From an uncultured virus (IMG/VR IMGVR_UViG_3300028840_006692) (taxonomy: Duplodnaviria; Heunggongvirae; Uroviricota; Caudoviricetes), in IMG/VR virus record IMGVR_UViG_3300028840_006692: DNA of 64,000 nt. One strand, given 5' to 3'. The translations under genes and the position numbers were made by a program. The notes under the pieces are model-generated. The model ran no database searches, was not told the DNA's origin, and saw only the letters and a list, made by a program, of their open reading frames with translations. Of the stretch, positions 1 to 22,864 are shown in pieces (the stretch's first letter is position 1; each line of letters starts with the position of its first letter).

Positions 1-483
1 AGGAACCCTGCGTAGAAAGGTGCTATCTCTTCCAGCTCCTTGAATCTGAAAGTTGAGCAAAGCATCTGCATTCGCAGTGAAATTGATTGTGGATTCCAAC
101 CTGTAATTTCCCGGAGGGAAATACAACGTGGTGTAATTCGTCCCCGTCGCCCAATCAGCCAAAAGAGTGTCAAGAGCAAGCTGGACTGCCGGAGCGTCAT
201 CATTTACCCCATCCCCTACTGCTCCATAGGTCTTCACGTTGTATCGATTTGTGCCCACATCTAGGTCTTGTGGTAACCAACTTACTCCGCTGTAAAGCAG
301 CGTCTGTCCTACGACGGGAGGATCGGAGGACACTGGGCGCCCTTGCATCCCCACAACCGTTTGAAGAGCCTCTGTTCCAGACAGATCTCCTCCTGCAACA
401 AAAATCCCAGCATTTTTTGCAATGTAATTTAGCGCCTGCTGAATGGCCCATCTACTATTATTGCGTAATGTAAAGTTTGACAT
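1..483 (-). CDS. Beta-helix spike/depolymerase-like protein, paralog of 737..2017 (3' end outside window; not in supplied ORF track)
   Basis: Manual translation from ATG at 483 (GGAG upstream): MSNFTLRNNSRWAIQQALNYIAKNAG...YNVKTYGAVGDGVNDDAPAVQLALD...LYFPPGNY...QGAGRDST. This is the pectate_lyase_3-type N-terminal signature and is colinear with 737..2017. Confidence 0.85.
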   Translation of the reverse strand, partial: MSNFTLRNNSRWAIQQALNYIAKNAGIFVAGGDLSGTEALQTVVGMQGRPVSSDPPVVGQTLLYSGVSWLPQDLDVGTNRYNVKTYGAVGDGVNDDAPAVQLALDTLLADWATGTNYTTLYFPPGNYRLESTINFTANADALLNFQIQGAGRDSTFLRRVP

Positions 484-535
484 AGCCAGTAGGCTCCTTC
501 GTACTTGGTTGTGAGGAGAGCAAAAATTTGCATTC

Positions 536-733
536 TTAAAGAGCTATCGCTCCAAATTGTTTCCAGGTCCCCGGGGTGCCTGCAGTGGTGCATACCCAAC
601 CAATGTAACCTCCAGGAGTTGGGGTTTCGTTCCAGACGATATCCCCTACTTTGTGCGTGCCGCCTGTCGGGGCTGTAGAATCTACCGCGTCTGCACGTCG
701 ATCCAGATAGGTCTTTGTGTCTACAAGTGCCAT
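536..733 (-). CDS. Small module resembling the C-terminal domain of phage tailspikes
   Basis: APTGGTHKVGDIVWN..P..GGYIGWVCTTAGTPGTWKQFG motif. In frame with 737..2017, separated only by TAA-AAA. Confidence 0.7.
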   Translation of the reverse strand: MALVDTKTYLDRRADAVDSTAPTGGTHKVGDIVWNETPTPGGYIGWVCTTAGTPGTWKQFGAIAL

Positions 734-736
734 TTT

Positions 737-2017
737 TTACCCTGCCCTGTACACGTTGCGTCTCACAACGTTTTTGTTGTTCGCATTAAACAATGTGTTA
801 TCGACATAAAGCGTTATCCCGTCGTCTTCTTTTACTACAAATTGATTTTTTGAGCAAATGCAATTATTTATTGCATTGAGGGCAATGTCCCAAAATACTC
901 CGTCAAGATCTGCTGCATATACGACGTTACCAACAACAGAAATAGAGTAGTTGGAAAAGATCCTTCTTGACTTTAAGAACGTGCCTCCATTTAAACGCAC
1001 GGTGTTCCCTGTGATAAAAAGCCCTGCTGGAAAATCTGTTGTGAAGAAGTTGTGATTCACTTCGATTTTTCCAAAATCGTTTCCTAAAGCGGTCACCCTT
1101 GAGCCACCACCCACATGCATGAATGCTGGCCCCATGGAAAAGAACCCAGTAGGATTGTTACGATCGTAGTTGTCACCAGAAAAACTGTTGTCGACAAAAG
1201 TTAGACCCCCTTGAAAATTCATCCCCCCAGTGTTTTCAAACACTGAGTTTTCAATAGACATTATGCCAACGCCTGTGATGATATTGCCGGTGTCATACCA
1301 GTAGCAATTTTCAAATCTTATGAAGGCAACGTTTCCGGTGAGCTCGATCCCATAGACGTCTTGATTCACGTCGTTGTTGGAGAAGCCACAGTTGATAAAC
1401 TGTGAATATGTAGGGCTGGTTATGGTAAAAGCTCTCTGACAATCCTTGAAAGTCATGTCGGTTACGGTGAGCCCTGCAATGTAAAGCACACCTATATTCA
1501 AAAATTGGAACAAATCTAGCGTGCTAGGAACACCTCGAATGATCGTGCTGTCTCGCCCTGCTCCTTTTATCTGAAATTTGATAAAAGCTGGTGACCCAAC
1601 GGTAGCAGAAAACACAATTGTGCTTTCTAGGTTGTACACACCAGGAGGAAAATACAATGTGGAAAATACCGTGCCTGTTTCCCAGCCTGCCAAAAGTGCA
1701 TCTATTGCAAGCTGAATAGCAGGCGCATCATCCGCAACACCGTCTCCCACAGCGCCATAATATTTGACATTGTAAATGTCATCATCAGCGGGCAAATCTG
1801 AAGGAGTCCAAGCTGCCCCGTCCCAAATGAGAGCTTGAGACGGGGTTGCAACAACAGGAGAAATTGGACGCCCTTGAATTCCAGTTACCACTTGATCAAG
1901 CTGGGTCCCTGTCAAATCTCCTCCAGCTACAAAGTTTCCGGAATTTTTCGCGATATAGTTAAGCGCCTGCTGTACATCTAATCTTGCATTACTTTTTATG
2001 ACTGGAAGAGTACTCAT
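737..2017 (-). CDS. Right-handed beta-helix spike / polysaccharide-binding or depolymerase protein
   Basis: YNVKYYGAVGDGVADDAPAIQLAID, LYFPPGVY, KGAGRDSTII, followed by Asn/Gly/Phe-rich beta-helix-like repeats. Confidence 0.85.
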   Translation of the reverse strand: MSTLPVIKSNARLDVQQALNYIAKNSGNFVAGGDLTGTQLDQVVTGIQGRPISPVVATPSQALIWDGAAWTPSDLPADDDIYNVKYYGAVGDGVADDAPAIQLAIDALLAGWETGTVFSTLYFPPGVYNLESTIVFSATVGSPAFIKFQIKGAGRDSTIIRGVPSTLDLFQFLNIGVLYIAGLTVTDMTFKDCQRAFTITSPTYSQFINCGFSNNDVNQDVYGIELTGNVAFIRFENCYWYDTGNIITGVGIMSIENSVFENTGGMNFQGGLTFVDNSFSGDNYDRNNPTGFFSMGPAFMHVGGGSRVTALGNDFGKIEVNHNFFTTDFPAGLFITGNTVRLNGGTFLKSRRIFSNYSISVVGNVVYAADLDGVFWDIALNAINNCICSKNQFVVKEDDGITLYVDNTLFNANNKNVVRRNVYRAG

Positions 2018-2058
2018 GTTTTTTATGCCTCTCTTTTTTTATGTCTTGATTGTTGGAA

Positions 2059-3372
2059 TTACCCCATAAACTCCATGAAAAAAGCGGCATCTCGAATGGA
2101 TAAATTCGCTGGCAAATTTATCCCTGCTATTTCTACCTGTATTTGGTCTCCGAATGCTAACGTCTCCAAAAATGTGCAAGCAACAGAGCTTTCGTTTGCA
2201 GGAACCGCGCTGTTGTATTGCCTTATGGCACAACCAGTTAAAGCAGGCCCCCCAAGCTTTCTAAACTGAATATCGATCTCTTGCGCCACACTTGACAGAA
2301 AAGACATTGAAAAAGAAAGCTTCCACAGACCCGCCAAATTAGCCTGTATAGAGTAGGTGGGTCCCAATTGCGGAGCGGTGTTTAGGAAGGTTGACACACT
2401 ATCAAAAATGTTGACTAAAGTATACACGGGCGCGCCAACAACTGCTAACACCGGTACTGCGCTTGGATGAGCCAAATAAATTTGGCCGTATCCCGATATT
2501 CTACATCCATCTAATTTGGCCTTGTCTGCTCCCGACATAAAACCAGGATTTCCGCCGCTAACTGCCAAAGCATGCAGCAAAGCTGGTCCCGTGGGTTGAT
2601 TTCCGTGCGCGTGGACATGGTCTCCACGAGGAATTTCTTGCGATACACCTGCCGATGCAGCCAGCGCAATATCTTGAATAGTTCCGGCTACGGCTGTATT
2701 TACTGGATGCTGATGATCATCTCTGGAAGCATTCGTTCCAACCCCTGGAACCGCAGTATCGCCAGCGTCTATTTGCACCGGATTTGCACCAGATAGTGGC
2801 GTATTCGTGGCGCTGGGAGCTACCCCATCTAGCTTGGTTTTGTCAGCTTCATCCATGAAGCCATGAGCTCCACCGCCCACAACAAGAGCATGCAGGGCTC
2901 CCCCGCCCCGGTTGCCATGCTGCCCATCTGTTGCCAACACTCCCACCTGGACATCGTTGGCATTGATCTGAATGCTTCCGTCACCGTTGGCTACCACGTC
3001 GAGCTGATATTGCTCATTGAGCCCAGGGTTCACGATGGTTCGAATAAGTCCGTCTCCGGGGACTACCTTGTTGTCGAGGAAATCCGCAGTGGTATCAGCC
3101 CCGGTTACTTTCACCCAAACGTCAGCAGCCGCACCGGTGGCATCGATTCGAAGGGAGTCATCGCCTCCCGGATCTTGTTGTACAAGATTGATATTGGTGC
3201 CACCTACGAGTTTGGATAGTAGGTAGGCGCAAGAATTATCACTTTGGTCAACTTTGACTTTGCACGAATCCTCAGCTACCGCGGCCACCTCAGATGCAGT
3301 GTCTTCCTGCACTCTATTCAACGTTTGGCGTATTGAAAGATGTGAATTGTCTTTAGGCTGTCGAATCTTCAT
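2059..3372 (-). CDS. Fibre/spike-like virion protein
   Basis: GFMxxADKxKLDG twice, plus RDDHQHP and RGDHVHAH motifs typical of phage fibres; beta-rich C-terminal head; N-terminal motif shared with the two beta-helix proteins. Confidence 0.7.
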   Translation of the reverse strand: MKIRQPKDNSHLSIRQTLNRVQEDTASEVAAVAEDSCKVKVDQSDNSCAYLLSKLVGGTNINLVQQDPGGDDSLRIDATGAAADVWVKVTGADTTADFLDNKVVPGDGLIRTIVNPGLNEQYQLDVVANGDGSIQINANDVQVGVLATDGQHGNRGGGALHALVVGGGAHGFMDEADKTKLDGVAPSATNTPLSGANPVQIDAGDTAVPGVGTNASRDDHQHPVNTAVAGTIQDIALAASAGVSQEIPRGDHVHAHGNQPTGPALLHALAVSGGNPGFMSGADKAKLDGCRISGYGQIYLAHPSAVPVLAVVGAPVYTLVNIFDSVSTFLNTAPQLGPTYSIQANLAGLWKLSFSMSFLSSVAQEIDIQFRKLGGPALTGCAIRQYNSAVPANESSVACTFLETLAFGDQIQVEIAGINLPANLSIRDAAFFMEFMG

Positions 3373-3381: not shown

Positions 3382-4353
3382 TCACTTTGCAAGCAGATAC
3401 ACCACACCTATTGCTGCGCCTGCTCCTATAAGGAGTGGCCACACTATGGATTTGGTTTTATCTGTGTCTTCTTTTTGAGCTACAGCTTGATACTTCCCCC
3501 ATCGATTCGGCGTCGATGTGGTTTGAATGGCAGGGCTGGCGTTTGCCAGAGTTTCGGCGGCGCTCCACATACAACCAGGATACGGGCGGCAAGGTTGAGG
3601 TAACCCCATTTGTTGCAGATTGTTGTCCACACACTGTGGGAAGGGCTCACAGGGTTGCATAGGGACCCCAGGGATGGAAGGGGTAGCCCCCGTTGCGAGG
3701 CTCAGGAGGGGCCAAGGTTGGGGCGCCCATGTTGGGGGTGCTGTATCATAGATTGCCTGCGCTTGGGCGCCCTGTGGGGCAGCTCCGGCCTTGGCGGCCG
3801 CGGTTTGACGCCGCCACTCGGGGGCCCAAGTGTTGTGGGCTACCTCACCCGGATGGGGGACCACAGCATACCTGGGGTCGTTCAACACGGGACCAGGACA
3901 TAGCTCTTGGAAGTGCATCGCCCAGTATGCCCACGTGTGGTAGTTGCCCGCGTAGATGTCCCGGTCGAGCTCTGCTCGGGATTCTGGTGTGAGCCACCAA
4001 TACCAGTTGCAAAAGCAAGCCCACCCCGGCCAGTTCCACGATTGGCTACACGGTTTCGAAGAGTACACCCCCGAATCGTGTTGTTTCATCATTTGAACCA
4101 GACGATCCGCAGCCTGGAAGATTTCTTCCTTGGAGGGAGGGATCCACCCCCACATACGAGCGGCTTCCCTGCTGGCGATGTTTTTTGCGATTGCTACTGA
4201 TCCAGGCCCCCAAGTGTCCATACACTGCACGCGGGGTTGTTGCCGACCGTTGGAATACTGCGTGGTCGACATGTGCATAATTTTTTCGCATAGCCCGCGG
4301 CTGCCAAGCTGACGAACGCAATTTTCAAACCCTGCTTGCATCATGCCGTTCAT
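3382..4353 (-). CDS. Tail-anchored membrane protein (putative virion)
   Basis: C-terminal TM (IVWPLLIGAGAAIGVVYLLAK). Start moved to the ATG just after the upstream stop. Contains a W-x4-C-x3-WY-x2-L-x4-R domain. Confidence 0.65.
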   Translation of the reverse strand: MNGMMQAGFENCVRQLGSRGLCEKIMHMSTTQYSNGRQQPRVQCMDTWGPGSVAIAKNIASREAARMWGWIPPSKEEIFQAADRLVQMMKQHDSGVYSSKPCSQSWNWPGWACFCNWYWWLTPESRAELDRDIYAGNYHTWAYWAMHFQELCPGPVLNDPRYAVVPHPGEVAHNTWAPEWRRQTAAAKAGAAPQGAQAQAIYDTAPPTWAPQPWPLLSLATGATPSIPGVPMQPCEPFPQCVDNNLQQMGLPQPCRPYPGCMWSAAETLANASPAIQTTSTPNRWGKYQAVAQKEDTDKTKSIVWPLLIGAGAAIGVVYLLAK

Positions 4354-4354
4354 A

Positions 4355-4579
4355 TCACTTCCCCTTCTTCGATGTATACCGTAAAACCTCAATGACTGCG
4401 CCTGTTAGGCTTGCCGCGGCCATCAGCCAAAGTGCTGGATGCGACCCAGAAGAGTGTTGCGCTGCAGCGGATTGCTGTGCAAGCTGTTGCTCGTCTACGC
4501 CGTTTCCCGCCACTGTCCCATAATGCGCACGTCCACATTGAGCACAGCGTCCACAGTTTGGGCATATTGTGGTGTACAT
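4355..4579 (-). CDS. Small tail-anchored protein with CxxC motifs
   Basis: CPNCGRCAQC; C-terminal hydrophobic helix followed by KKGK; GAGG SD; tightly packed between neighbours. Confidence 0.6.
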   Translation of the reverse strand: MYTTICPNCGRCAQCGRAHYGTVAGNGVDEQQLAQQSAAAQHSSGSHPALWLMAAASLTGAVIEVLRYTSKKGK

Positions 4580-4582: not shown

Positions 4583-5494
4583 TTACCTCTTAGAACCAGA
4601 AGCAAGAATGGCTACACCAACAAGGATCGCAGTTACAGCACCAGCACCCACCAAAAAGGGTACCAAATTGGATTTGTCTTCCTTTGGAATCCAGGGGAAC
4701 TCTTGGGTGTACTGCGGATCACCATACACCTGCGGGGGGCAGCACCAACCTACTTGTTGGGGCGTTGGTGTTTCAGGGCACGGATCAGGTGGAGGTGGGT
4801 AGGGATACTCGGTAGGTTGCGTCCAAGGCCATGGGTTGCCCTGGGTGAGTTCGAACAACACCTCATCCCGTCCTACCCCATCCAGACGACTGTACCATCG
4901 AGCAAAACACGCAAGCTGCGACCAATCCATTGAGCATGGTTGCCCTGGCCCTGCTCTGAAGTAACCAGGCACAACCTGCCCTATCTTGAAGGCTTCAACG
5001 AGCATCCCAACATGTTCTCTGTCGGATGAGGTAAGCTCAAATACCCCAGCAGCACGTTTGATTTCGTGTTCGATTGTGGTGCGCACGTTAGCAAAAAACG
5101 TTTCCTGCTGTTGGTGTTCGTAGCATCGAACATCTGCCAGCGGGTCAGCTTGCGGAGTTTCCCCCGGTTGGGCACTGGGGACTTGCCCAGTGGGCGGCGG
5201 TGGTCGGCCTGGAAGACTGGGTTGCTGCTGGAAGCCATTTGATGGAAGCATTGGAGTCATCGGAGTTGCAGGATGCGAGGGAAGTATTGGGGTCAACGGG
5301 GTCAACGGGGTCAACGGGGTCAACGGGGTCAAACTGGGCATGGGTTGCCCCGATCGAGAACCTCTGGACCCGCCGTTGGTAGTGCTGTAACCACTAACGT
5401 TGAGGAAGGTTGGTGCTGTAGGTGTTGATCCCAAGGGATTGAGTGGCGTGCGCCCCAGAAGCCCGCTGTATCGATGAGGTTTTTTGCGCCGCAT
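4583..5494 (-). CDS. Pro-rich tail-anchored membrane protein
   Basis: (PLT)n repeat, domain shared with 3382..4353, C-terminal TM followed by SKR; GAGGAG SD. Confidence 0.7.
   Translation of the reverse strand: MRRKKPHRYSGLLGRTPLNPLGSTPTAPTFLNVSGYSTTNGGSRGSRSGQPMPSLTPLTPLTPLTPLTPILPSHPATPMTPMLPSNGFQQQPSLPGRPPPPTGQVPSAQPGETPQADPLADVRCYEHQQQETFFANVRTTIEHEIKRAAGVFELTSSDREHVGMLVEAFKIGQVVPGYFRAGPGQPCSMDWSQLACFARWYSRLDGVGRDEVLFELTQGNPWPWTQPTEYPYPPPPDPCPETPTPQQVGWCCPPQVYGDPQYTQEFPWIPKEDKSNLVPFLVGAGAVTAILVGVAILASGSKR
5289..5332. repeat. 9-bp tandem repeat (GGGGTCAAC) ~5x, encoding PLT repeats
   Basis: Directly visible. Confidence 0.9.
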
Positions 5495-6100: not shown

Positions 6101-6553
6101 CTATACACCACGCGTTAGCAGCACGCTTGCGCATTGCCCACGCAGCTTGAATTTTGTCACATCAGCCAAAATTCCAACTCTGGATCCAGAGTGGAGTAGT
6201 GCACACGTTGCCAACCCGGGAGTTTGAGAGATGTACACGGGCGACCCCTCCGCGGGAGGGGTACTCTCTTCAAATCGCATACACGAAAGTCCTGTATGCT
6301 GGCACAACGCGGTTAGACCGGGGGGGCACTCTTCGGTCAAAACCCCACACCAATTCACATCATTGCAGAGTGCAGGTTCGCATCGACGAGGGCCCCCAGC
6401 AACGAGCTTGACTATCGATCCCGATGGGATCACCAGATTGGTAGAATTCGTTACCCGAATCACCTCTAGCGTGGTCTCGAGGCGTCGCATGAAGCCTTGC
6501 CAGGCTTTCTTTAGGGCGTGATCTGAGGTATTTATTCGGACAGCGCGAAACAT
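6101..6553 (-). CDS. Hypothetical protein, DUF2190/decoration-protein-like
   Basis: G..VKL...GV..E....G...G.PVYIS..PG.AT pattern recalls DUF2190-like beta-clip proteins; weak resemblance. Confidence 0.4.
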   Translation of the reverse strand: MFRAVRINTSDHALKKAWQGFMRRLETTLEVIRVTNSTNLVIPSGSIVKLVAGGPRRCEPALCNDVNWCGVLTEECPPGLTALCQHTGLSCMRFEESTPPAEGSPVYISQTPGLATCALLHSGSRVGILADVTKFKLRGQCASVLLTRGV

Positions 6554-6567: not shown

Positions 6568-8652
6568 CTATCTGCGGGGTTTTTTCGATTTTCTTGTCGT
6601 TTTGCGCGGCTTGCGGCGTTTCCTGGTGGGTTTGCCCAGTTTCTGGTAGGCCAACGCGCCCACACCTACAGCCCCCGCACCAAGAAGAGCCCAAGCCCAC
6701 ATGGGCCAACCTTCTTCTTTCGTTTCTCGAACCCCAACTGGGGTGACACCGGGCACTCCCCCGGGAACTGTTCCGGGAACTGTTCCGGGCAGCATGCACA
6801 CATTGCCCGCAAGCGTCAATCCAGGGGGACATCGCCCCCCAACGGCAGGAATACCAGACGGAGTGACGCACCCCACTCCTGGCACCCATTGTGATCCTGT
6901 GGGCGCATCTACTGGGCACTGCCCGGATATTGGCCCCGTGCCCCCACCTCCCGGCGTACCTCCACCGGGAACGGTGGTGCCAGGCACGCACAAGCCTTGA
7001 ATCGTGGGATGTGGGACTGTTCCCGGTGGGCACTGCCCCCCAGTAACAGGAAGACTGCCTCGAACGTAGGGAATCGTCCACTGGCCGGCCGCATCTCGGA
7101 AGTACAGCTGATTGTAGACCGCGGGGCTCCAAAATTCCTCCCCAGGCCCAAACCAATCGAGCGGAAGCTTGATTTTGATGCCTGGCTTCCAGCCCTTGAG
7201 AACACAAACGTTTTGGTTGTTTCGCCAACACCCCATAGGCCAATCGAAGTTGGCCGCACGGATTTGACCATGATCGCTTGAATCGCGACCAAATTTCACT
7301 GCAACCGCGCCCGGGTACTCGTCCCCGACGATATAGCGCACATCTTCTCGAGGCGTCACGCTGCCACAATCGCACTTATCCCCTGCAGCCCCAACATGGC
7401 CTCCCCATCCGGGGGGCTGGGGCGTCACAGCACACGACCCCCCGCATCGGCACTGACACGCGTTGTCTGAGCACTCCCCGATTTGTCCATTTTCTGGAAA
7501 TGGATCATAGCCTCCTAAGGAGTGCAGCCCATTGGGCCCTCGAAGGACAGGTTGTTGCGGTCCCCATGCTGTGGGATCATGCAGCCCATTGGGCCCTCGA
7601 AGGACAGGTTGTTGCGGTCCCCATGCTGTGGGATCATGCAGCCCATTGGGCCCTCGAAGGACAGGTTGTTGCGAATACCCAATAGTACTCGGGACATAAT
7701 CCGGATCCTGCGCTCTCCAGGGGCCCGGAACGTAATCCGGATCCTGCGCTCTCCAGGGGCCCGGAACGTAATCCGGATCCTGCGCTCTCCATGGACCACC
7801 AATAGAGGGCTGAACCCGGCGTGTGATTGGGATAAACACGCCCATTCCGACCCGAAAGTCTTTCGGGTGCCACGTCTTCCATCCGGTGCGATCATCCTGG
7901 ACCACCCTCAAGTGCGGGTTGACCGCAAATAGGTCCTCAAGATCAATACCATACTTTTCCGCGATCATTCGCGGTGTTTCATTTCCAACGATGTGCGTGT
8001 GCATCATTTCACCTCTTCTTGTCGGTGGTCCGGCAATCGAGCCAGAGGATACCACCTCGATATTTTGCCACACCTTGCTCCCTTGGGGTGGGTCATTCCA
8101 CGCCAAGGGAATTTTCAGGCGCTTTCCCGGACCCCATTGTTTCCAGGTGCACACTGATACGTCTTTTGACTGCGTTTCGAAATTATCCTCGAGATTTGCC
8201 CCGCGCAGCTTGATCCAGCTCTTTGCAGGCTCACCAAACTTGCGAGCGACCCCCCAAGGAGTGTCATCAGCACCAACCACGTACACGTATTGAGATTTGG
8301 CCTCCACAGGAAGCCCCGGGTTGCAAGGCTCTGGGTTGGGGTAGTACGGCACTACATGCAACCAGATGTCGCCAGACTTAGGTTCGGGCCAATCACCAGG
8401 AATTCGAATAAATCCTTCGAAATTTCGAAATCGACACCGACCCCCATCCAGATAAAAGCCCCCCACGTGGTCCGCGTTGGCTGAAATGAGCTCTTGCAGC
8501 TTGGAATCTTCGAATTCGTCGAAGAACCACGACATAAACGCCAACTCATCCCGGTTAGGCAGACCATCACGGGCTACGTATCGGGTAACCTGTACCCAAT
8601 ACGGTTGCACTTTATCGGATAGAGGCCCAGGGCAAGCTTGGTTGTAGGTCAT
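6568..8652 (-). CDS. Multi-LysM tail-anchored membrane protein
   Basis: Three LysM-like units (YVVGADDTPWGVARKFG..LRGAN; HIVGNETPRMIAEKYGIDLEDLFAVNP; YIVGDEYPGAVAVKFG..IRAAN), Cys/Pro/Gly-rich stalk, TM, very basic tail. Confidence 0.75.
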   Translation of the reverse strand: MTYNQACPGPLSDKVQPYWVQVTRYVARDGLPNRDELAFMSWFFDEFEDSKLQELISANADHVGGFYLDGGRCRFRNFEGFIRIPGDWPEPKSGDIWLHVVPYYPNPEPCNPGLPVEAKSQYVYVVGADDTPWGVARKFGEPAKSWIKLRGANLEDNFETQSKDVSVCTWKQWGPGKRLKIPLAWNDPPQGSKVWQNIEVVSSGSIAGPPTRRGEMMHTHIVGNETPRMIAEKYGIDLEDLFAVNPHLRVVQDDRTGWKTWHPKDFRVGMGVFIPITRRVQPSIGGPWRAQDPDYVPGPWRAQDPDYVPGPWRAQDPDYVPSTIGYSQQPVLRGPNGLHDPTAWGPQQPVLRGPNGLHDPTAWGPQQPVLRGPNGLHSLGGYDPFPENGQIGECSDNACQCRCGGSCAVTPQPPGWGGHVGAAGDKCDCGSVTPREDVRYIVGDEYPGAVAVKFGRDSSDHGQIRAANFDWPMGCWRNNQNVCVLKGWKPGIKIKLPLDWFGPGEEFWSPAVYNQLYFRDAAGQWTIPYVRGSLPVTGGQCPPGTVPHPTIQGLCVPGTTVPGGGTPGGGGTGPISGQCPVDAPTGSQWVPGVGCVTPSGIPAVGGRCPPGLTLAGNVCMLPGTVPGTVPGGVPGVTPVGVRETKEEGWPMWAWALLGAGAVGVGALAYQKLGKPTRKRRKPRKTTRKSKKPRR
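7523..7792. repeat. 57-bp (~3x) and 36-bp (3x) tandem coding repeats
   Basis: Encode QQPVLRGPNGLHDPTAWGP and GPWRAQDPDYVP; no spacers between units. Confidence 0.9.
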
Positions 8653-10034: not shown

Positions 10035-10035
10035 G

Positions 10036-11629: not shown

Positions 11630-12241
11630 TCACTTTGCTTGGAATTGTGGATACAGGCCCATTTCCTTCAAAGCGCAAACGGCTTCCTGGTACCCCACCT
11701 GTCGAAGATTGCACCCGCTTAGTTCCAATCCCGTCATCGTCATTTGTAGAACATAGGGGATTTCATCTTCTGCCAGGTTACGATCCAGAATCGCATCCAC
11801 GAAAAGATTTTGGTCTTGATCAATCACCCACGCGTTGTTGAGCAGATCACGATCGTTGCCGCGAGTTGTCGCGATGTTTTCGAGCGCGATATAGCCTTCC
11901 GTCAGCTGGAATCGATCCGGGCCCTCGATTCTAAGGCTCACATTGATCCAAGGAGTTTCGTTTCGGTACGCGTCGATGATTGGCTTGAAAAGTGATCCGT
12001 TGTTGGCCTGAGGTGCGCGGATGTTGTAGACAAATTGTTGAATCCAGACCGGTTGGTAAAACCGCTCTTGGAATGCAGTCGTGACGATTGACCCCACAGT
12101 CCCGGCATCATCCCAATTGATATTGAGTTGATACGAACGCGGGGCCATTGGTTGGCCCTTTGCCATCATGAGGGCAAGGCGCGGATTGAGTAGGGCGATG
12201 GTACGAAGATTGTCTGCGAGATTTGCCCAGCCGCCGATCAT
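11630..12241 (-). CDS. Soluble beta-rich protein, candidate single jelly-roll capsid protein
   Basis: About eight predicted strands (YQLNINW, VWIQQFVYNI, INVSLRI, LFVDAIL, LQMTMTG); GGAGG SD; follows the 429-aa candidate. Confidence 0.45.
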   Translation of the reverse strand: MIGGWANLADNLRTIALLNPRLALMMAKGQPMAPRSYQLNINWDDAGTVGSIVTTAFQERFYQPVWIQQFVYNIRAPQANNGSLFKPIIDAYRNETPWINVSLRIEGPDRFQLTEGYIALENIATTRGNDRDLLNNAWVIDQDQNLFVDAILDRNLAEDEIPYVLQMTMTGLELSGCNLRQVGYQEAVCALKEMGLYPQFQAK

Positions 12242-15401: not shown

Positions 15402-15572
15402 CGCTAGGCCAACCGAGTTGTGGGGCGCTCCCCAACACCAATGGGAGATGGCTCGTGGGGTGTGTTGAAGAGCGCCCAAACATGCAAAAACCTAAACCAA
15501 TTGACACTACAAGGCTATCATCAGCTTGGGGCTAACTCAAGCTGCATCAAATTTTATCCGTATATTGGGGGG

Positions 15573-16064
15573 CTACGGCCAAACAAAACCGTGGCTATCC
15601 ACGACACAACCACGAGGGAGTACAACCATGTAGCTCGTGCTTTTTTGTGTTGTCATCAGGCGCACAGGAGGCGCTTCTAACTTGAAATCATGATGATATT
15701 TGCCGCAATACTCACCGCTGCGAGCATAGTAAATTCGTGCAACACGTCCTAGTTCAGACCAATCGCCTTGTGGCAGCTTTACTTTACCAAGTTTGATACG
15801 TACATCATGACCAAAATAAGCGTTTACTATAGACCCAAATGCGGGATCTTCTATGTGGACAAACCCATTACGTAGTGCATACGGTGCGATCATAACTGTG
15901 CACACCGGTAGCACGCCACCAAGAACGTCCTGATACATCATCCAGTTGTTTGGAATATCTACAAGGCGACCATCTTCAAGATCAAATTTGACGTGATCAC
16001 CACGTGTCAAAAAGAAGTGCCCAGATTCATCTTGGAGGATCAAACCGTGCGATTTACGCCCCAT
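15573..16064 (-). CDS. Hypothetical protein (LGxVxxIYY...YxHDF motif)
   Basis: GGAGG SD before MGRKSHG; globular composition. Confidence 0.6.
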   Translation of the reverse strand: MGRKSHGLILQDESGHFFLTRGDHVKFDLEDGRLVDIPNNWMMYQDVLGGVLPVCTVMIAPYALRNGFVHIEDPAFGSIVNAYFGHDVRIKLGKVKLPQGDWSELGRVARIYYARSGEYCGKYHHDFKLEAPPVRLMTTQKSTSYMVVLPRGCVVDSHGFVWP

Positions 16065-16897
16065 AGGATGCCTCCAAGTAGCGCAGCACCAGCAAACGCA
16101 CCAAGTATCCAACACGGTTGGGGGAGCTCTGGCAGATCTCTGGTCCATTCTGTTTGAACATGGCCAAGCAGAATAGGATCTTTGGTGCGCACAAGACACG
16201 CGCGGTTTTGATTCTGAGCAATCGCGTACGCATGGCGCGTGATGAGCTCAGCATCGATGGCAGCTTGCCGATCGGTGGTGGTCTTGAAAATACTTCGTGC
16301 AATCAAAGATGCATCGCCGTCTTCAAGCATTGCGTAGTTTGCAGCAGGCGCACTACCTAGCAACACTTCAATAAATCTTTTTGCTCCCGCATCATTGTTG
16401 TTTGCATGCTCGAAACACGCAGAAATCTCGCGAACGGATCCTCCTTCACGTACTTCGATCATATCAACAAACGCAGGCGCAAAACACGTGTTGGTCTCAA
16501 CACACGTTTCACAAATCACCGCGCCCCAGTTGTGATGCCCCCACCATTTGCTCATATCGCGAGAACCCCTCACTGCACGAGGAAACCCGGGCCATCCATA
16601 GTTCGCAAGCATACGTGAGATTGCTTGCGAAGATTGGATCACGGTTTCACTTGGGTTGTACCCAAGCGCTTTCCAAGCCGCCTCAAGCACTAGCCGCGCC
16701 CAAATATCCAAACACGCCTGATCTGGGCACCCAGGCACATCAGCCAGATTTCTTGATTGTCGTTCGGCTTCTCCCGGATCCGGCCCAGACCCCGGGTAAG
16801 CATCCCCCCAAGAAAGCGGAGCGTCCGGGCCATCACCACCCAGCCAACCCCTCGGGACAACTGCTCCCCCATCTCCTAGACACCGTCGAACTGTCAT
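16040..16897 (-). CDS. Tail-anchored glucosaminidase/lysozyme-fold-like protein, probably degenerate
   Basis: QAISRMLANYG...HHNWGAV...FEHANNNDAGAKRFIEVL resembles GH73-type motifs but lacks the usual catalytic Glu; C-terminal TM. Confidence 0.45.
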   Translation of the reverse strand: MTVRRCLGDGGAVVPRGWLGGDGPDAPLSWGDAYPGSGPDPGEAERQSRNLADVPGCPDQACLDIWARLVLEAAWKALGYNPSETVIQSSQAISRMLANYGWPGFPRAVRGSRDMSKWWGHHNWGAVICETCVETNTCFAPAFVDMIEVREGGSVREISACFEHANNNDAGAKRFIEVLLGSAPAANYAMLEDGDASLIARSIFKTTTDRQAAIDAELITRHAYAIAQNQNRACLVRTKDPILLGHVQTEWTRDLPELPQPCWILGAFAGAALLGGILWGVNRTV

Positions 16898-17742
16898 GCG
16901 CCCACCATGCAAACACCCCCCTCGGGGGGAATAATAGACCAACGGTTAGCCGCAAGCGCTCCCACAACTGCCGGCAAAACAACAGCGGCTTGATAGCGGT
17001 GATCGCCTATCGAGGTAGGATCTACCTTTCGATAGGAAAGCGCGTAAAAGCCTCCAACATTCACGGCCCATTCGATGGGGGGATCTTCGTATGTGTGGCG
17101 CCCCCACTGAGTGACGTTGCCGTCCGGCCACCTTTGCCGTCCAGCTGGATTGGTCCAAGGGTGTCTGGACGGGTCGTGATAGAGCACTTCGGGCAGAGTG
17201 TTCGAAATGTATGGGTACCCCGCAAGAATGCCCTCTGTTATCTCTTGTGTGGTCACGCTTGTTGGGTCTTGCCCAGGCGGGCCGTCTGCCTGGGAATTGG
17301 TGATTGCAAGTAACCTGTTACCCGCGACCACATTCGAAAATGGTGGCACACCATAAGCGGCAAGTTTACCAAAAGCCACATACGGCCCAAGATATCCCCC
17401 TCGGACCGCAGGATACGAAACAGACTGGCAATGAATACCGTCTATGCAAATCACCGTGTCCACATAACCCCCATCTGCGGAAGATAAAAACGTACGGACA
17501 CCAGAGCAAGACGCAGAAAAACCAAGAAGGCCTATGCGTAGGGGTTGGACACCAGGAAGCTTGGTCCGTATGGCCTCACGGATTGGTCTATGACCAAGTG
17601 CAAGGACAGAACCCCGAAAGTCTGGGTGTCTTCCGGGGGGACTCCCCATGTTCAGAAACGCGGTTGGCCGTCTGAACATCGGGCGCGCATCATTGGGAAT
17701 CGGCCCGTGGTTCCAAAATATAAAAACGTCCTTGTAGGACAT
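16894..17742 (-). CDS. Alpha/beta-hydrolase-fold protein
   Basis: IGLLGFSAS nucleophile elbow, VICIDGIH strand-Asp, late GDH His; paralog at 62880. Confidence 0.6.
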   Translation of the reverse strand: MSYKDVFIFWNHGPIPNDARPMFRRPTAFLNMGSPPGRHPDFRGSVLALGHRPIREAIRTKLPGVQPLRIGLLGFSASCSGVRTFLSSADGGYVDTVICIDGIHCQSVSYPAVRGGYLGPYVAFGKLAAYGVPPFSNVVAGNRLLAITNSQADGPPGQDPTSVTTQEITEGILAGYPYISNTLPEVLYHDPSRHPWTNPAGRQRWPDGNVTQWGRHTYEDPPIEWAVNVGGFYALSYRKVDPTSIGDHRYQAAVVLPAVVGALAANRWSIIPPEGGVCMVGA

Positions 17743-17745: not shown

Positions 17746-19278
17746 TCAGCCTCGCTTGGGTACCTGTGCGAAAGCACCACCCCGACGGCGCGGCGTACCT
17801 TTCAGGTACCTATAGAGCTCCACCCCGCCGTAGACACCCAACCCTATTGCTGCGGTGCCCACAATCGCCATCGTGCCGATCTTGATCAGATCAGTGACCT
17901 CCGATATGGTCGAAGGTCGCGTGGCTGCTGCTGCTTGTGCTCTAGCCTGTGCTACCCTTATCCGTTGCTCGCGCTCTGCGGCTGCCCGGCGTGCTCCCTC
18001 ATCTGGCCCGTGTTCGCGTTCAAGCTCACGTGCGCGCACAACTTCGTCTGTCTGAAGTATCACCTTTTGAGCTGCTTTTTCCTTGTCGCACCAAAAGTAC
18101 ATGCCTCCAAGTCCGGACAACGCGACAACCATCACGGCGACTGCCCAGATTCCAGCCAGCGGAGCCCCCACCAGACCAGCCGGAGGAGACATCGCCGATG
18201 GGATTTGACCGGGCTGCACAACGTAAACAGTGCCTTGGTTGTCGATTCCAAGACGCACGTCTCTACTCTGCTCACCACCAATGACCACTGTGTTCAGCTC
18301 AGTGTCCCAAGCGATAGGCCGCAAACCTGACGCCCCCTCGTGGCCGTACTCTACAGCAAGCCTCGATGCGGAGATCAACGTCCGAAAGTAATCTTCGTCT
18401 GCTTGTGTCCAGACACCAGGACCAGGATCGCGGGCTTGATCCACAATCGATCGGTTCTCCAAGTCTTCACGCAGAAATCTAAGCTCTTCGTGCACTCGAA
18501 CAGCCTCCACAACCATAGCATCCAGCTTGTTGGCGGCATTTCTGGCGTCCTCAGCCATGCGCACTTGATCTACTTGATCGAAACCGGCGTAGGCACCAAT
18601 CAATCCCGACGAAGGACGCCCAATCAATCCCGACGAAGAACGCCCAATCAATCCGGACGGACGCCCTACTCCCACGAAATCGCCGTGTTCTCTCATAGTC
18701 GTTAGCCCGCTTCCCATGGTGTGCAAGTCACAAGGCTTGCCGTTTACGTTATCACACATAACTTGGCCGCCAGGTACAGCAATCCAGCGCTCCCGAACCG
18801 GGCGGTCTACCTGTCCGAAAGGTTGGGCTGTGCTTGGATCACATAGCGTCCAGACACCCCCATCAAACACCGCGGCGAGCACATGAGACAGCTGCCCATC
18901 TTCTGAATACCCGTGACCCACGACCGCGCCCTCAATGCCAATCGCACCACAAGCCGCAAGGTAGCTCACAAGCAACCCATCGCAGTCTTCACCAAGAAAT
19001 TTCAACCCTTCGCACCCTTCCAAGGTGCACGCCGCAGAAGGTATAAATTCTGCATCGACAGGGTCCGGCACATAGATGCGTTCGCGTCTGAGCGCATCTA
19101 GGAGGATGGCTGCTTTGTCTTTTGGTGCTCTTGGGTTTCCACCTTGAACAAGCTTTTCGATAGCCCAAGCCCTCACTCTCGGATCAAGCCGCCCTTCCGC
19201 TGCTCTTTTGGCTACTTCTGACAGGCTGATCCGTGTCCCTGGTTCCCCCCTTGGGTGTGGGCGTCTGATGATGTCCAT
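17746..19278 (-). CDS. Transglutaminase-like (Cys-His-Asp) protein with two C-terminal TM helices
   Basis: YVPDP...EDCDG...SHV...CDPS triad order; SSGLIGRP repeats; two TMs and a basic tail. Confidence 0.8.
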   Translation of the reverse strand: MDIIRRPHPRGEPGTRISLSEVAKRAAEGRLDPRVRAWAIEKLVQGGNPRAPKDKAAILLDALRRERIYVPDPVDAEFIPSAACTLEGCEGLKFLGEDCDGLLVSYLAACGAIGIEGAVVGHGYSEDGQLSHVLAAVFDGGVWTLCDPSTAQPFGQVDRPVRERWIAVPGGQVMCDNVNGKPCDLHTMGSGLTTMREHGDFVGVGRPSGLIGRSSSGLIGRPSSGLIGAYAGFDQVDQVRMAEDARNAANKLDAMVVEAVRVHEELRFLREDLENRSIVDQARDPGPGVWTQADEDYFRTLISASRLAVEYGHEGASGLRPIAWDTELNTVVIGGEQSRDVRLGIDNQGTVYVVQPGQIPSAMSPPAGLVGAPLAGIWAVAVMVVALSGLGGMYFWCDKEKAAQKVILQTDEVVRARELEREHGPDEGARRAAAEREQRIRVAQARAQAAAATRPSTISEVTDLIKIGTMAIVGTAAIGLGVYGGVELYRYLKGTPRRRGGAFAQVPKRG

Positions 19279-19290
19279 GTGCATATTGTA

Positions 19291-20349
19291 CTACTTAAAA
19301 GCTTTCGAGGCAGCATACAGGCCAACCCCACCAGCAACAACCAACGCAACAATTGCCAAACCAGACAACCCTTCGTCTTTTTCATTTGTTTTTTGGGCTG
19401 CTTGATCGACGTCTTTAGGGAAATAAACATCCCGATCTATTGTCATCGCGGGTAAGGTCGGAAGCCTAGTTAGGTGCTGTGTCTCGCCCAACCCCTCTTC
19501 GAATGTCTGTGAAAGCTGCCCATTTGGTGCACGCCCAGCAAACATCCCAGATATCACAGGATGCGCACAATGAGCTTGAGTGCTCGTGAGGCGCGCCATC
19601 GCTCGCGAATATGCCCAATCGTGGTACTGTCTTCGAAGAGTGTTGCGCAAACTGCGGTACCTTGGAGAATATGCCGGATTGCACTTTTTTCGCACACCAC
19701 AACCAAGCGTGCCAAGCAAAGTAGGGGTGTCTCCGTTCGCTTGTGCAGATGGATCACTGCCAGGGTAAACGTTGCTGGGCGGAGCACCACCGTAGGGAGT
19801 ACCGCCCCAAGGATCGCTCCCTGGGTAAACATGGCTGGGCGGAGTACCACCGAAGGGGGCACCGCCGAAGGGGTCACTGCCTGGGTACACTTTGCCGGGA
19901 GGAGCACCACCAGACGGATCCCGCCCCGGGGTAGCATTTTGCACTGGTGACAACCCAAACGGATCGCTACCTGGCATGGTGGTTTGCACTGGTGACAACC
20001 CAAACGGATCACCACCCGGGACGACCACTCCAACAGCTTGCCCGCCATAAGACCTCCCAGGCGGGACATCTTTGGGCGTCACCATATCACGCGGAGTTGG
20101 AGGGCACACATACTTAGCATAGTCTGGATGATGGCGATATGGAATGTTCCCACTCTGCCCTCTTGGGGGTGGTGGTGCCCAAGGGCGGTAGTTCCACCCA
20201 GGACACGCACCATGAGGCAAATCGACCAGTGCCTCACAATACCCGGGGCGATAAACCCGATCTATTGGGTATTCGCCGCGGTGTATCATGTCGTATGGAT
20301 AAAACCGGCTTGTTGCCAAAAGAGCCGGTGAGCACGCAAAATCTACCAT
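19291..20349 (-). CDS. Pro/Gly-repeat tail-anchored protein
   Basis: PGSDPFG/YPGSDP repeats; C-terminal TM followed by KAFK. Confidence 0.7.
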   Translation of the reverse strand: MVDFACSPALLATSRFYPYDMIHRGEYPIDRVYRPGYCEALVDLPHGACPGWNYRPWAPPPPRGQSGNIPYRHHPDYAKYVCPPTPRDMVTPKDVPPGRSYGGQAVGVVVPGGDPFGLSPVQTTMPGSDPFGLSPVQNATPGRDPSGGAPPGKVYPGSDPFGGAPFGGTPPSHVYPGSDPWGGTPYGGAPPSNVYPGSDPSAQANGDTPTLLGTLGCGVRKKCNPAYSPRYRSLRNTLRRQYHDWAYSRAMARLTSTQAHCAHPVISGMFAGRAPNGQLSQTFEEGLGETQHLTRLPTLPAMTIDRDVYFPKDVDQAAQKTNEKDEGLSGLAIVALVVAGGVGLYAASKAFK

Positions 20350-20361
20350 CGGACACCTCGT

Positions 20362-20381
20362 TTATCGTTACATAACGATAA
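20362..20381. promoter_or_regulatory. Perfect inverted repeat TTATCGTTA-CA-TAACGATAA (candidate operator)
   Basis: Intergenic, 12 nt upstream of the 20349 start codon. Confidence 0.55.
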
Positions 20382-20404
20382 CGCAAATTGCCCGAATAAT
20401 CTAG

Positions 20405-22864
20405 CTACAACAAGCTTGATCCCACGTCTTCAGCTTCGCGCATATCTGCGGAAACAAGTACTTCAGGATCATGCGATGGTTGCATAGGTGCTGGTTGAAC
20501 AGGAGGCATCGGTGCTGGTTGAACAGGAGGCATCGGTGCTGGTTGAACAGGAGGCATCGGTGCTGGTTGAACAGGAGGCATCGGTGCTGGTTGTATCGGT
20601 GCTGGCGGCATCGGTGCTGGTTGTATCGGTGCTGGCGGCATCGGTGCTGGTTGCATCGGTGCTGGCGGCATCGGTGCTGGTTGCATCGGCGCTGGCGGCA
20701 TCGGTGCTGGTTGCATCGGCGGCTTACCAGAAGCTTGGAGCAAACCCTCAAGATGAGCAATATACCCAAGCATCGATTGTTGCTCAGATTGCGAATGATT
20801 TTGCATTTGGTTCATCGCACGTCGCATATTGATCAATTCGTTTTCCAGTGCGTCTGTTTTTTGCCGTTCGACGTTGTTCTTCGCCGCCTCTACCCTTTGC
20901 AAAAATCCTTTGCCAAGCTCTTGGATGTTATCCGCGTTGAACATAGCTTGTTCAAGCGGCCCCAACATTTTACCCTCAGGCCCAAATGCAAATCTCCAAG
21001 GACCCGCTTCTTGTATTCGAATAGGCGGATTGTTGTCGGGGTGGTGCGGTTGTGTTGCTTGTTCTGGGAGATCCATAGTGGTCCCATCCAGCAAAGATCC
21101 ACTCCCGTTACTCGCGGCAGGACCTAGATGCACAGATTGTGATGCTGATGGGGTACCTTGCACTGGTGATTGGGGCGGCCGTAAACCAAAGGTGTTCGCA
21201 AGCTTGACGAAGCTGCGATAGCTTTGCTCTAGTTCGCCCATTTGTTGCTGCAGAGACGAAAGCGCGCTTGCTGGTGGCGCGGCAGAAATTGGTTGGGGTT
21301 GCGGAAGTTGCGCAGGCATTGAGTACCCGCTGGGCATTACTGGTGCGGCTGTAGTTTGCTGCACCGAAACAAGAGAATCCAGCTGTTGTTTGCTGGCATT
21401 CATGTGACGCATAAATTCACGCATCAACTGTTGCATGCCATGCACTTGCCCTTGCACGAGCGCCATATCGCGGCTTACTTCCTGGATCAATTTGTTATCC
21501 GTAGGTGCTACCTGTTGTTGTATGGGCATCGGATAACTTGCACCATAGGAATACATTGGATCCGAGGGTTGCAACTTTGACATCAATTGCTCCATCCGGT
21601 CGTTCATGCGCTCAAGCTGTGCCCGCATCCAAACCATTTGGGGATCTTCTGCTTCTTCATCAGAGTCTTCCCTGGTTGCGGATTTTGGTGTTTGGACTGG
21701 AGACTGGGCCGGGGCCGGCTGGACCGGAGCCGACTCCGGGGCTGGGGCCGGCTGGACCGGAGCCGGAGCCGGAGCCGGAGCTGGCACACCAAGCGAGTAA
21801 CCTGGATCATATTGGGGCATCGAAGCACCATAGGGGTACCCCGGGTCATGTTGGGGCATCGAAGCACCATAGGGGTACCCCGGGTCATGTTGGGGCATCG
21901 GAGCACCAGGAGGGTGCCCACCGTTTCCACCCCGGGGCATGTTCCAAGACGGGGGCGGTAACCTGCGCTGTAGATGCGGTGGGATCCCTGCCGTCCCCGG
22001 TGGTCCGGGGGGGTGCGGCGGGATTTGTTGCTGGTGTTGGATGTAGGGGATATTGTGTATTCGTCGAGCCGACTCAAAATCGGCGCGCGTGGGCGCTAAC
22101 CCAGGTTGTGGCAGCACCGAAGCCGCCGCACTTTCAGGGTAGCCGGGAATTTGCCCGAACACCCCATCGCCCAAAGCACGCTGTCGCCAAGCAGCCGATA
22201 CCATAGGATCCGCCGCGAACGCAACGAGATCGCGCCCGCGAATGCGGCGCCCGTCTGTTACGATCATCCACTTGAATTCCGCGTCGTCACCGTGCCAGAA
22301 GCGTTGTTTGAGATACCGAATCATATCCGAGTACTCAGGAATATCCTGCAAGTTGACAACATCCAGCTCGGCCGCTCGAGGTTTGGTCTGATACAAATAA
22401 ACCTTTGCTCTGTCGCCGGCGCGCGGAAGCCAGAGCTCCGTGCAACTGTTGTACAAGACGGGGCCCCGAGCGTTCCACGCTACTTTTTCACCCATAGCTT
22501 TTTTCCTGAACGTTTGATCGAGCATCTCGTTACTCAGTGCCGATTCAGAATCCAAGGCTCCTTTCTGGATGGCTTCCTCCGGAGAAATTTCCGTCGGGTC
22601 TGCCGGGTCGCTGAAATGGTGTGCCTCCCCGGTAAACTGGCGCTCGTCCTGCACACGCGCGCGATCGAGTGCTGGAGAGTGCGGCATCGATAAATCAGGG
22701 GAGCGATCTTCGTCCTCGTCTGCTTCTTCTTCCTCACCTCCACGCTGGGCGCGATCGAGATCCATCTGTCGTTGGCGCGCCGCACGGTTTGCCATTCTTG
22801 CCGCTTGCGCTTTAGCAATCGCGGCTTGTTGTGCTGGGGATCTTGGCTTGTTGCTCATGGGCAA
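20405..22864 (-). CDS. Large Pro/Gln-rich coiled-coil protein
   Basis: 819-aa ORF with QPAPMPP and MPQHDPGYPYGAS repeats and coiled-coil segments; no recognisable enzyme motif. Confidence 0.7.
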   Translation of the reverse strand: MPMSNKPRSPAQQAAIAKAQAARMANRAARQRQMDLDRAQRGGEEEEADEDEDRSPDLSMPHSPALDRARVQDERQFTGEAHHFSDPADPTEISPEEAIQKGALDSESALSNEMLDQTFRKKAMGEKVAWNARGPVLYNSCTELWLPRAGDRAKVYLYQTKPRAAELDVVNLQDIPEYSDMIRYLKQRFWHGDDAEFKWMIVTDGRRIRGRDLVAFAADPMVSAAWRQRALGDGVFGQIPGYPESAAASVLPQPGLAPTRADFESARRIHNIPYIQHQQQIPPHPPGPPGTAGIPPHLQRRLPPPSWNMPRGGNGGHPPGAPMPQHDPGYPYGASMPQHDPGYPYGASMPQYDPGYSLGVPAPAPAPAPVQPAPAPESAPVQPAPAQSPVQTPKSATREDSDEEAEDPQMVWMRAQLERMNDRMEQLMSKLQPSDPMYSYGASYPMPIQQQVAPTDNKLIQEVSRDMALVQGQVHGMQQLMREFMRHMNASKQQLDSLVSVQQTTAAPVMPSGYSMPAQLPQPQPISAAPPASALSSLQQQMGELEQSYRSFVKLANTFGLRPPQSPVQGTPSASQSVHLGPAASNGSGSLLDGTTMDLPEQATQPHHPDNNPPIRIQEAGPWRFAFGPEGKMLGPLEQAMFNADNIQELGKGFLQRVEAAKNNVERQKTDALENELINMRRAMNQMQNHSQSEQQSMLGYIAHLEGLLQASGKPPMQPAPMPPAPMQPAPMPPAPMQPAPMPPAPIQPAPMPPAPIQPAPMPPVQPAPMPPVQPAPMPPVQPAPMPPVQPAPMQPSHDPEVLVSADMREAEDVGSSLL
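20487..20720. repeat. 15/21-bp tandem coding repeats (QPAPMPP)
   Basis: Core GGCATCGGTGCTGG reiterated about 12 times. Confidence 0.9.

Follow-up and report, generated by a model that had tools for sequence, protein, structure and literature searches.

Which kind of particle is built by the uncultured virus recorded in IMG/VR as IMGVR_UViG_3300028840_006692? We examined a 64,000-nucleotide stretch of this DNA (the window), filed under Caudoviricetes, and focused on the genes at positions 1-22864. An earlier note on the window, made from its letters alone, had read this block as the virion module of a tailless, membrane-containing virus. The evidence that bears on the question directly is gene content, conservation, synteny, the lack of Caudoviricetes hallmarks detectable with hidden Markov models (HMMs), the jelly-roll fold of a 258-amino-acid (258-aa) protein, and a catalytic triad. 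Based on these observations, we consider it likely, with a probability of roughly 0.68, that positions 1-22864 are the morphogenesis module of an ~82-kb bacterial virus with a tailless, membrane-lined jelly-roll shell.

Every long open reading frame (ORF) of positions 1-22864 is on the minus strand. Pfam and PHROGs label almost nothing here, the exceptions being two spikes and sub-threshold matches to LysM, CBM_14, and DUF1360. The earlier note had described a co-oriented block of ~23 kb encoding spikes, many proteins anchored by transmembrane (TM) segments, a protamine-like protein, and a transglutaminase-like protein, and each of these elements is borne out by the scans reported below. IMG/VR holds 14 related records of 40-120 kb, seven of them rated at least 90% complete, and six relatives with direct terminal repeats measure 60.0, 63.4, 73.6, 78.6, 105.5, and 119.9 kb. 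The gene order is the same in 14/14 loci: a transglutaminase-like protein, a protein of ~160 aa, a basic protein, proteins of ~400-465, ~200-250, and ~260-380 aa, and then membrane proteins. When five proteomes were clustered with phmmer, the shared core consisted of exactly these genes, with no ATPase among them. The core genes of the window are as follows.

10846..11622, minus strand: 258-aa predicted single jelly-roll protein, penton-like (AlphaFold2 [AF2] fold)
11630..12241, minus strand: 203-aa soluble protein, syntenic in relatives (Atlas model with a predicted local distance difference test [pLDDT] of 0.70; beta-sandwich leads)
12354..13643, minus strand: 429-aa candidate major capsid protein (MCP), jelly-roll class, possibly double (AF2 model; weak structural matches)
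13725..15479, minus strand: basic, protamine-like protein with 93 K+R versus 23 D+E; homologues in relatives
15573..16064, minus strand: ~160-aa protein present in 5/5 genomes compared; start trimmed using the 153-aa homologue of relative G003
17746..19284, minus strand: membrane-anchored transglutaminase-like cysteine enzyme with three TM segments and invariant C101/H134/D149

If this core builds a jelly-roll shell, the three proteins encoded at 12354-13643, 11630-12241, and 10846-11622 are the candidates for its parts. The earlier note had called all three soluble and beta-rich. None has a TM segment in a hydropathy scan, and AF2 models show two of them, the 429-aa and 258-aa proteins, to be beta-rich. 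It had also proposed structure prediction with Foldseek comparison, holding that non-jelly-roll folds in all three would speak against its reading; the outcome is a confident jelly-roll for the 258-aa protein and weak jelly-roll matches only for the 429-aa protein.

The AF2 model of the 258-aa protein, built from 50 sequences, has a pLDDT of 90.7 and a predicted TM-score (pTM) of 0.89 and is almost entirely beta. Foldseek returned weak rows only, nearly all of them viral jelly-roll capsid proteins. The best match is a chain b that starts at residue 45. In the excerpt of PMC6414509, the first 40 residues of the HHIV-2 penton VP9 are missing from the map, and we therefore take chain b to be the HHIV-2 penton. 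We are confident of the jelly-roll assignment for this predicted structure.

The AF2 model of the 429-aa protein (114 sequences; pLDDT 86.5, pTM 0.85) is beta-rich. Foldseek gave no row at an E value of ≤0.001, the top rows being SPV1, papillomavirus L1, iridovirus MCP, and D13, and a Foldseek search of BFVD likewise gave nothing at E ≤0.001. The model matches jelly-roll proteins only, and weakly; because the match scores lie below the tool's typical level for unmatched models, a jelly-roll class fold is all that we claim for it. By our reading, the predicted strands and helices are ordered as in a PRD1-type double jelly-roll, with two consecutive units of eight strands and, in each unit, a helix behind strand five; the protein may be of this kind. 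An Atlas model of the same protein was discarded (pLDDT 0.23). For the 203-aa protein, the nearest named clusters in an Atlas look-up, PF18628 and PF25513, score only 0.76 and serve as a lead only. PDB sequence searches with the capsid-candidate profiles A1, A2, and A3 gave chance rows only.

The 429-aa protein has 22 close homologues, and clustering at 50% identity leaves 116 family representatives among 1.84 billion proteins, most of them (nearly all) 390-470 aa in length. For the 258-aa protein, 53 homologues were found, and several of these are encoded on contigs of 73-214 kb. Because of these numbers, we regard both genes as real rather than chance ORFs. A search with the ~160-aa core protein found 2 proteins only. 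None of the 114 members of the 429-aa family that were compared with Pfam and PHROGs has a match (0/114), and pipelines based on those libraries therefore leave the structural genes unnamed. A tblastn search with the 429-aa protein, the 258-aa protein, and the N-domain of the transglutaminase-like protein against 50,697 deposited phage genomes gave no match. One homologue of the capsid candidate, L040 (G017:C11:2817-4079, on a contig binned as Parcubacteria), has one in-frame TGA, which may reflect an error in sequencing, a pseudogene, or recoding of the stop codon.

We also considered whether this virus could be enveloped or pleomorphic and lack a closed icosahedral shell, its Cys-rich anchored proteins sitting in an outer envelope and its jelly-rolls belonging to a nucleocapsid or to spikes. 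C-terminally anchored proteins with a large N-terminal domain are unusually many, the protamine-like protein suggests a nucleoprotein core, no packaging motor is seen, and a capsid lattice is not proven by structural matches as weak as these. However, both folded proteins find their best matches in capsid and penton proteins from icosahedral viruses with an internal membrane, the tight pair of MCP-sized and penton-sized genes is kept in all relatives, and lysis-type enzymes (M15, SLT) suggest lytic release. We regard an enveloped virus as quite unlikely.

We also followed the genome beyond the window. The earlier note had expected a genome of more than 64 kb; the contig that encodes the window proteins measures 82,077 bp, and the largest relatives have 120 kb. 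Of the 82,077 bp, 81,819 are covered by the window together with contigs L009 and L038. L009, a 29,397-bp metagenome contig found with a 40-base probe from the window end, overlaps the window by 10,040 identical bp and reaches 10 kb further, and L038, the IMG/VR copy of the L009 contig, contributes the final 7.8 kb. The extension adds further spikes and fibres of the beta-helix and pectate-lyase types, further proteins with tail anchors, a thioredoxin, and the N-terminus of a 436-aa SLT-related protein whose remainder lies in the window.

62880..63998, minus strand: C-terminal part of the 436-aa protein, 42% identical to L005:3027-4397, its G003 homologue

The G003 homologue has an SLT lytic transglycosylase domain (E = 1.8e-22), and the window's own part of the 436-aa protein has no Pfam match. 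The spike ORF at 1-483 leaves the window at its left end, and its probable continuation is L038:1-675, which is 41% identical to the C-terminal part of the spike paralogue at 737-2017. Because 1-483 and the 5'-open ORF L038:1-675 resemble two halves of one gene, we infer that the genome is probably circular or circularly permuted. The particle-building block appears to run across the contig ends into ~14 kb of additional spike and fibre genes.

Does this genome encode the hallmarks of a tailed phage? We scanned 92 of its own ORFs (66 from the window plus 17 and 9 from the extension, the nine of L038 by PHROGs only) and found no family match to a terminase, portal, HK97 capsid protein, tail tube or sheath, or FtsK/HerA protein. 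The earlier note had found no Caudoviricetes head or tail genes in the block, and the 66 window ORFs agree, their only tail-category PHROG matches being to the depolymerase domains of two spikes. In the rest of the contig, where the note had suggested looking for TerL, portal, HK97 MCP, or tail genes, we found only spikes and thioredoxin, membrane, and SLT-related proteins. The relatives were searched in six frames with hallmark profiles, with control genomes positive in each search.

PF03237 (Terminase_6N): 0/14 relatives
PF03354 (TerL ATPase): 0/14 relatives
PF04860 (portal): 0/14 relatives
PF05065 (HK97 capsid): 0/14 relatives
PF01580 (FtsK): 0/14 relatives
PF04665 (A32): 0/16 records
PF01935 (HerA): 1/16 records, G016 only

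None of these families turned up when 104 ORFs of G003 were scanned, or 139 ORFs of at least 110 aa from the complete G006 and G014; terminase Pfam families beyond PF03237 and PF03354 were covered through the ORF scans only. The sole "portal" PHROG match, phrog_15528, was rejected, as it covers residues 16-62 of a NUDIX hydrolase in G006. Thus, the HK97 MCP, large terminase, and portal that characterize Caudoviricetes were not detected in the searched ORFs and records. The virus could still be a tailed phage if its capsid protein, portal, and terminase had diverged past HMM recognition and its jelly-rolls were receptor-binding proteins or served as decoration or cement. Neither TerL, portal, nor MCP is matched in the near-complete genome or in the 14-16 relatives, of which seven are at least 90% complete. 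Among phage genes, that for terminase is normally the best conserved. Nor is there a conserved ATPase or nuclease-sized core gene, or any tail tube, sheath, tape-measure, or baseplate match. The jelly-roll proteins are the most conserved ones, and an HK97-fold chain appears in none of the fold-match lists for the folded core proteins. A tailed phage of this kind appears highly improbable.

A packaging ATPase is a hallmark of most Varidnaviria according to the excerpt of PMC8328091. The earlier note had seen none in the window, and the same holds for the whole-genome scans and for 15/16 records. No P-loop protein was found in the conserved core, and the FtsK-HerA packaging ATPase of Bamfordvirae and Helvetiavirae is not among the genes found in this virus. 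The main alternative to enclosure by co-assembly is a jelly-roll capsid filled by an unrecognized motor, which might be a host FtsK-type translocase, a viral SNF2 or other helicase, or a very divergent ATPase.

Two genes, along with the hallmark status of the packaging ATPase in Varidnaviria, speak for this alternative. The complete relative G016 encodes a 593-aa HerA-family ATPase (PF01935, E = 9.9e-9) that adjoins ThyX, outside the capsid block. Encoded at L035:13057-14838, it consists of an ATPase at the N-terminus, a coiled coil, and a C-terminal part that may be a winged helix. HerA proteins, including some that belong to defense systems, are among the solved structures nearest to it, and it may be either a packaging motor or a defense gene. 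Against its being a general motor, searches of the other 15 records at E values up to 1 found no homologue. The second gene is the SNF2 helicase at 56896-58980 of the window, 45% identical over 713 aa to L006:14529-16685 of G003, a genome that otherwise shares almost only structural genes with the window. This helicase is outside the five-genome core, being absent from the other three genomes compared. Moreover, the complete 73.6-kb G006 has no family-annotated P-loop NTPase among its 79 ORFs of at least 110 aa. On balance, we consider an unrecognized motor unlikely, although it is the most serious of the alternatives.

Several observations nevertheless weigh against our reading and should be stated together. 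The HerA-family ATPase of G016 implies that at least one member may use an ATPase-driven route. Other members could carry divergent ATPases, as absence from HMM searches is not proof of absence, and the window encodes large proteins of 763 and 609 aa that have no assignment. Finally, hhalign comparisons among the 429-aa, 258-aa, and 203-aa families show no relation.

These results led us to speculate about how such a particle could be assembled. A membrane vesicle loaded with tail-anchored viral proteins would serve as the assembly platform, and a shell of jelly-roll proteins, presumably icosahedral, would form over this lipid membrane with its many tail-anchored Cys/Pro-rich and LysM-like proteins. 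The 429-aa protein, as the likely MCP, would build the facets, and the 258-aa protein, as the likely penton, would build the vertices, where spikes could dock through a common N-terminal motif. The 203-aa protein would be a further capsid-associated protein, and an 819-aa Pro/Gln-rich protein may fix capsid size. The basic protein, with its hydrophobic segments, could condense the genome against the membrane, and the membrane-anchored Cys-His-Asp enzyme may mature, process, or cross-link particle components. Given that a packaging ATPase is not conserved, the simplest route would be for the shell to co-assemble around condensed DNA, and the genome would most likely be enclosed by condensation and co-assembly rather than pumped in by a motor, as is reportedly the case in Sulfolobus polyhedral virus 1 (SPV1). 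Host recognition would rely on at least 8-10 pectate-lyase/beta-helix spikes and fibres, and during entry the LysM-like proteins would act on peptidoglycan, as might the SLT enzyme if the window homologue keeps the domain. This scheme draws on PRD1-like viruses (excerpt of PMC6356626), on sphaerolipoviruses (excerpt of PMC6414509), and on SPV1. The tailless jelly-roll virus proposed by the earlier note stands at the level of gene content and fold class; its internal membrane, like the double jelly-roll and the motor-less packaging, is plausible rather than observed.

In the transglutaminase-like enzyme, Cys101, His134, and Asp149 are invariant in 11/11 aligned sequences, as is D100-C101-D102, and PF01841 is matched by 3/7 homologue N-domains (best E value, 7.4e-7); the window's own protein does not match PF01841 even at an E value of 1. 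Judged by these residues, the protein, which the earlier note had called transglutaminase-like, carries the Cys-His-Asp triad of the PF01841 superfamily. In 4/11 relatives, an intein lies directly before the catalytic Cys (L014:1817-2968, L015:3220-5358, L024:2933-5497, and L025:1333-3213); two of the four have large extra inserts, which by length only may be homing-endonuclease domains. Inteins are typically located in essential active sites, and their position next to the catalytic Cys therefore marks the enzyme as indispensable. The window's own gene has no intein. A "ribonucleotide reductase" PHROG match of L032:17489-20000 is probably intein-derived.

In the basic protein, the basic residues are concentrated mostly at ~27-220 and are followed by Ala/Gly-rich hydrophobic segments and a Cys-rich tail. 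The remaining genes of the block are spikes, membrane proteins, and a few proteins of other kinds. TM segments were called by hydropathy scan, which found C-terminal anchors in four ORFs in addition to the three TM segments of 17746-19284; weaker C-terminal hydrophobic tails were judged by eye from translations.

1..483, minus strand: N-terminal part of a pectate-lyase-like spike (PF12708 [Pect-lyase_RHGA_epim], E = 5.3e-13; PHROG tail spike)
737..2017, minus strand: pectate-lyase-like beta-helix spike (PF12708, E = 9.4e-14; phrog_2234), with the common N-terminal motif
2059..3372, minus strand: fibre/spike paralogue with the common N-terminal anchor motif, 53% identical to L038:6117-7367
3382..4392, minus strand: Cys/Pro-rich protein with a C-terminal TM anchor (TM 316-334; 11 Cys; hydropathy scan)
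4583..5494, minus strand: Pro-rich protein with a C-terminal TM anchor (TM 280-298); homologues in G003, L010, and L021
5543..5878, minus strand: small polytopic membrane protein with a weak DUF1360 match (PF07098, E = 6.9e-4, below cut-off)
6101..6553, minus strand: 150-aa Cys-rich protein, in 2-3 tandem copies in relatives
6568..8652, minus strand: large LysM-like Cys/Pro-rich protein with a hydrophobic C-terminal tail and basic end (weak LysM match; sequence by eye); homologues in relatives
8649..10085, minus strand: LysM-like N-domain protein with a C-terminal TM anchor (TM 456-474)
10036..10812, minus strand: protein with a hydrophobic C-terminal tail (sequence by eye); homologue in L017-L019
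16040..16942, minus strand: protein with a hydrophobic C-terminal tail (sequence by eye)
16894..17742, minus strand: 282-aa protein with a GxSxS motif seen by eye, possible hydrolase (0 Pfam/PHROG matches)
19291..20349, minus strand: Pro/Gly-repeat protein with a C-terminal TM anchor (TM 328-346)
20405..22864, minus strand: 819-aa Pro/Gln/Ala-rich protein (15.3% Pro) that may be a scaffold or determine particle size; G003 and L014 have weak homologues
22855..23181, minus strand: 108-aa protein, first gene of the block, conserved in 3/5 genomes

The N-terminal motif is common to at least five spike/fibre genes. At least 8-10 spike/fibre paralogues surround the contig ends (window 1-3372; L009 1-4572; L038 1-8933), and a 329-nucleotide stretch is 86% identical between L038 6276-6601 and window 2891-3216, which suggests a multivalent or swappable receptor-binding set. 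The G003 homologue of the protein at 8649-10085 matches endolysin phrog_380 through its N-domain. The thioredoxin gene (L009 6744-7055) lies amid Cys-rich structural and membrane proteins and may hint at virus-directed disulfide chemistry.

Beyond this block, the window holds replication and regulation genes of phage type, namely those for a LexA-like regulator, two tyrosine recombinases, methyltransferases, ThyX, a gp32-like single-stranded DNA-binding protein, a uracil-DNA glycosylase-PolA fusion, primase, DnaB, helicases including SNF2, and a 1516-aa protein with DnaN domains. Pfam and PHROG scans thus recover the PolA, primase, and DnaB replisome that the earlier note had described. The 866-aa fusion at 39846-42446 joins uracil-DNA glycosylase, 3'-5' exonuclease, and family A DNA polymerase. 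The 1516-aa protein (50466-55016) contains several DNA polymerase III beta-clamp domains and a RusA-like stretch and is an unusual giant clamp fusion; its 609-aa neighbor (55026-56855) has a near-identical C-terminal motif. At ~44000-46000, in the DnaB/primase region, GC skew flips from negative (to ~46 kb) to positive and AT skew falls sharply, which may mark a replication origin or terminus. We found no tRNA genes. Replication modules differ completely among relatives.

The LexA-DNA-binding-domain protein and the two tyrosine recombinases (24419-25258, 26394-27197, and 33522-34478) suggest a temperate or plasmid-like option. Together with the many membrane proteins, they also raise the idea of a conjugative or integrative island carrying surface proteins. 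We give this idea almost no credence: six relatives of 60-120 kb have terminal repeats; capsid-type jelly-rolls, depolymerase spikes, and endolysin-type enzymes are present; and neither conjugation genes nor, in genome scans, an integrated copy was found.

The host is clearly bacterial. Bacterial signatures in the window include DnaN domains, DnaB, sigma-70 region 4, a LexA DNA-binding domain, and a weak, sub-threshold LysM match, and those in G003 include SLT and an M15 peptidase. A pattern scan of genome contigs with capsid-candidate profile A1 found nothing, and one with profile A2 found contigs of two metagenome-assembled genomes, of 27.8 kb (binned as Parcubacteria) and 2.8 kb (binned as Planctomycetales); both contigs are short and may therefore be mis-binned viral DNA. 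Among 401 Planctomycetota genomes, we found only the one with the Planctomycetales-binned contig and two marginal matches (E about 3e-4).

The virus is a member of an uncultured lineage that is widespread and has genomes of 60-120 kb, and there is a substantial chance that this lineage is new and of high rank. The fuller proposal, an undescribed, globally distributed, high-rank lineage of 60-120 kb bacterial viruses with a membrane-lined jelly-roll capsid and motor-less genome enclosure through a membrane-associated protamine-like protein, is more tentative, and we rate it somewhat below even odds. The titles and abstract openings that we searched contained no description of large tailless phages of this type, and a 2026 review (PMC13359090) pairs "large phages" with Caudoviricetes. 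The lineage raises the question of how 80-120 kb of DNA is enclosed without a conserved packaging ATPase. If our proposal is true, a motor-less route so far reported only for a small archaeal virus would extend to these genomes, and the rule that large prokaryotic virus genomes always use HK97/portal/terminase packaging would be broken.

How does this virus compare with known systems? In design, it comes nearest to SPV1 and to the vertical jelly-roll viruses with an internal membrane (Tectiviridae, Sphaerolipoviridae, and kin), and it has sequence similarity to none of them. Nor was the packaging ATPase expected of Varidnaviria found in it. Tectiviridae have genomes of about 15 kb and a protein-primed polymerase, and PRD1 and PR772 have the double jelly-roll P3, the penton P31, and the packaging ATPase P9; in contrast, the virus described here has 82 kb, a PolA/DnaB/primase replisome, and no match to a P9-type ATPase. 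Sphaerolipoviridae and their kin possess a packaging ATPase, which is not conserved here. Sphaerolipoviridae, Simuloviridae, and Matsushitaviridae (HHIV-2, HCIV-1, SH1, and P23-77) are vertical single jelly-roll viruses with two small MCPs and genomes of ~30 kbp or smaller (about 30 kbp for Sphaerolipoviridae in the excerpt of PMC12643093), compared with a 429-aa candidate and 82 kb here. With respect to the two single jelly-rolls of Helvetiavirae, the 258-aa protein is predicted to be a single jelly-roll, but its best match is the chain that we take to be a penton.

SPV1 (Portogloboviridae) has an archaeal host and a genome of about 20 kb. Its family is one of archaeal (Sulfolobales) viruses, unlike the bacterial virus described here, whose structural matches to SPV1 (PDB 6OJ0) are all weak and whose basic protein differs in that it has a Cys-rich tail and hydrophobic segments. 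Among cultured phages of a tailless, membrane-containing build, SSIP-1 is the largest, at about 44 kb. According to the excerpt of PMC6356626, it resembles almost nothing in the databases and has MCPs of two types. A tblastn search of the phage collection, which may or may not include SSIP-1, found no match for the 429-aa, 258-aa, and transglutaminase-like proteins; the genome described here is about twice as large, and the likeness would lie in the tailless membrane build. Described large phages are all tailed, and described tailless membrane-containing phages are far smaller. A tailless jelly-roll lineage of 60-120 kb would widen the size range of that architecture in prokaryotes several-fold and would be a bacterial counterpart to the growth of eukaryotic jelly-roll viruses into giant viruses.

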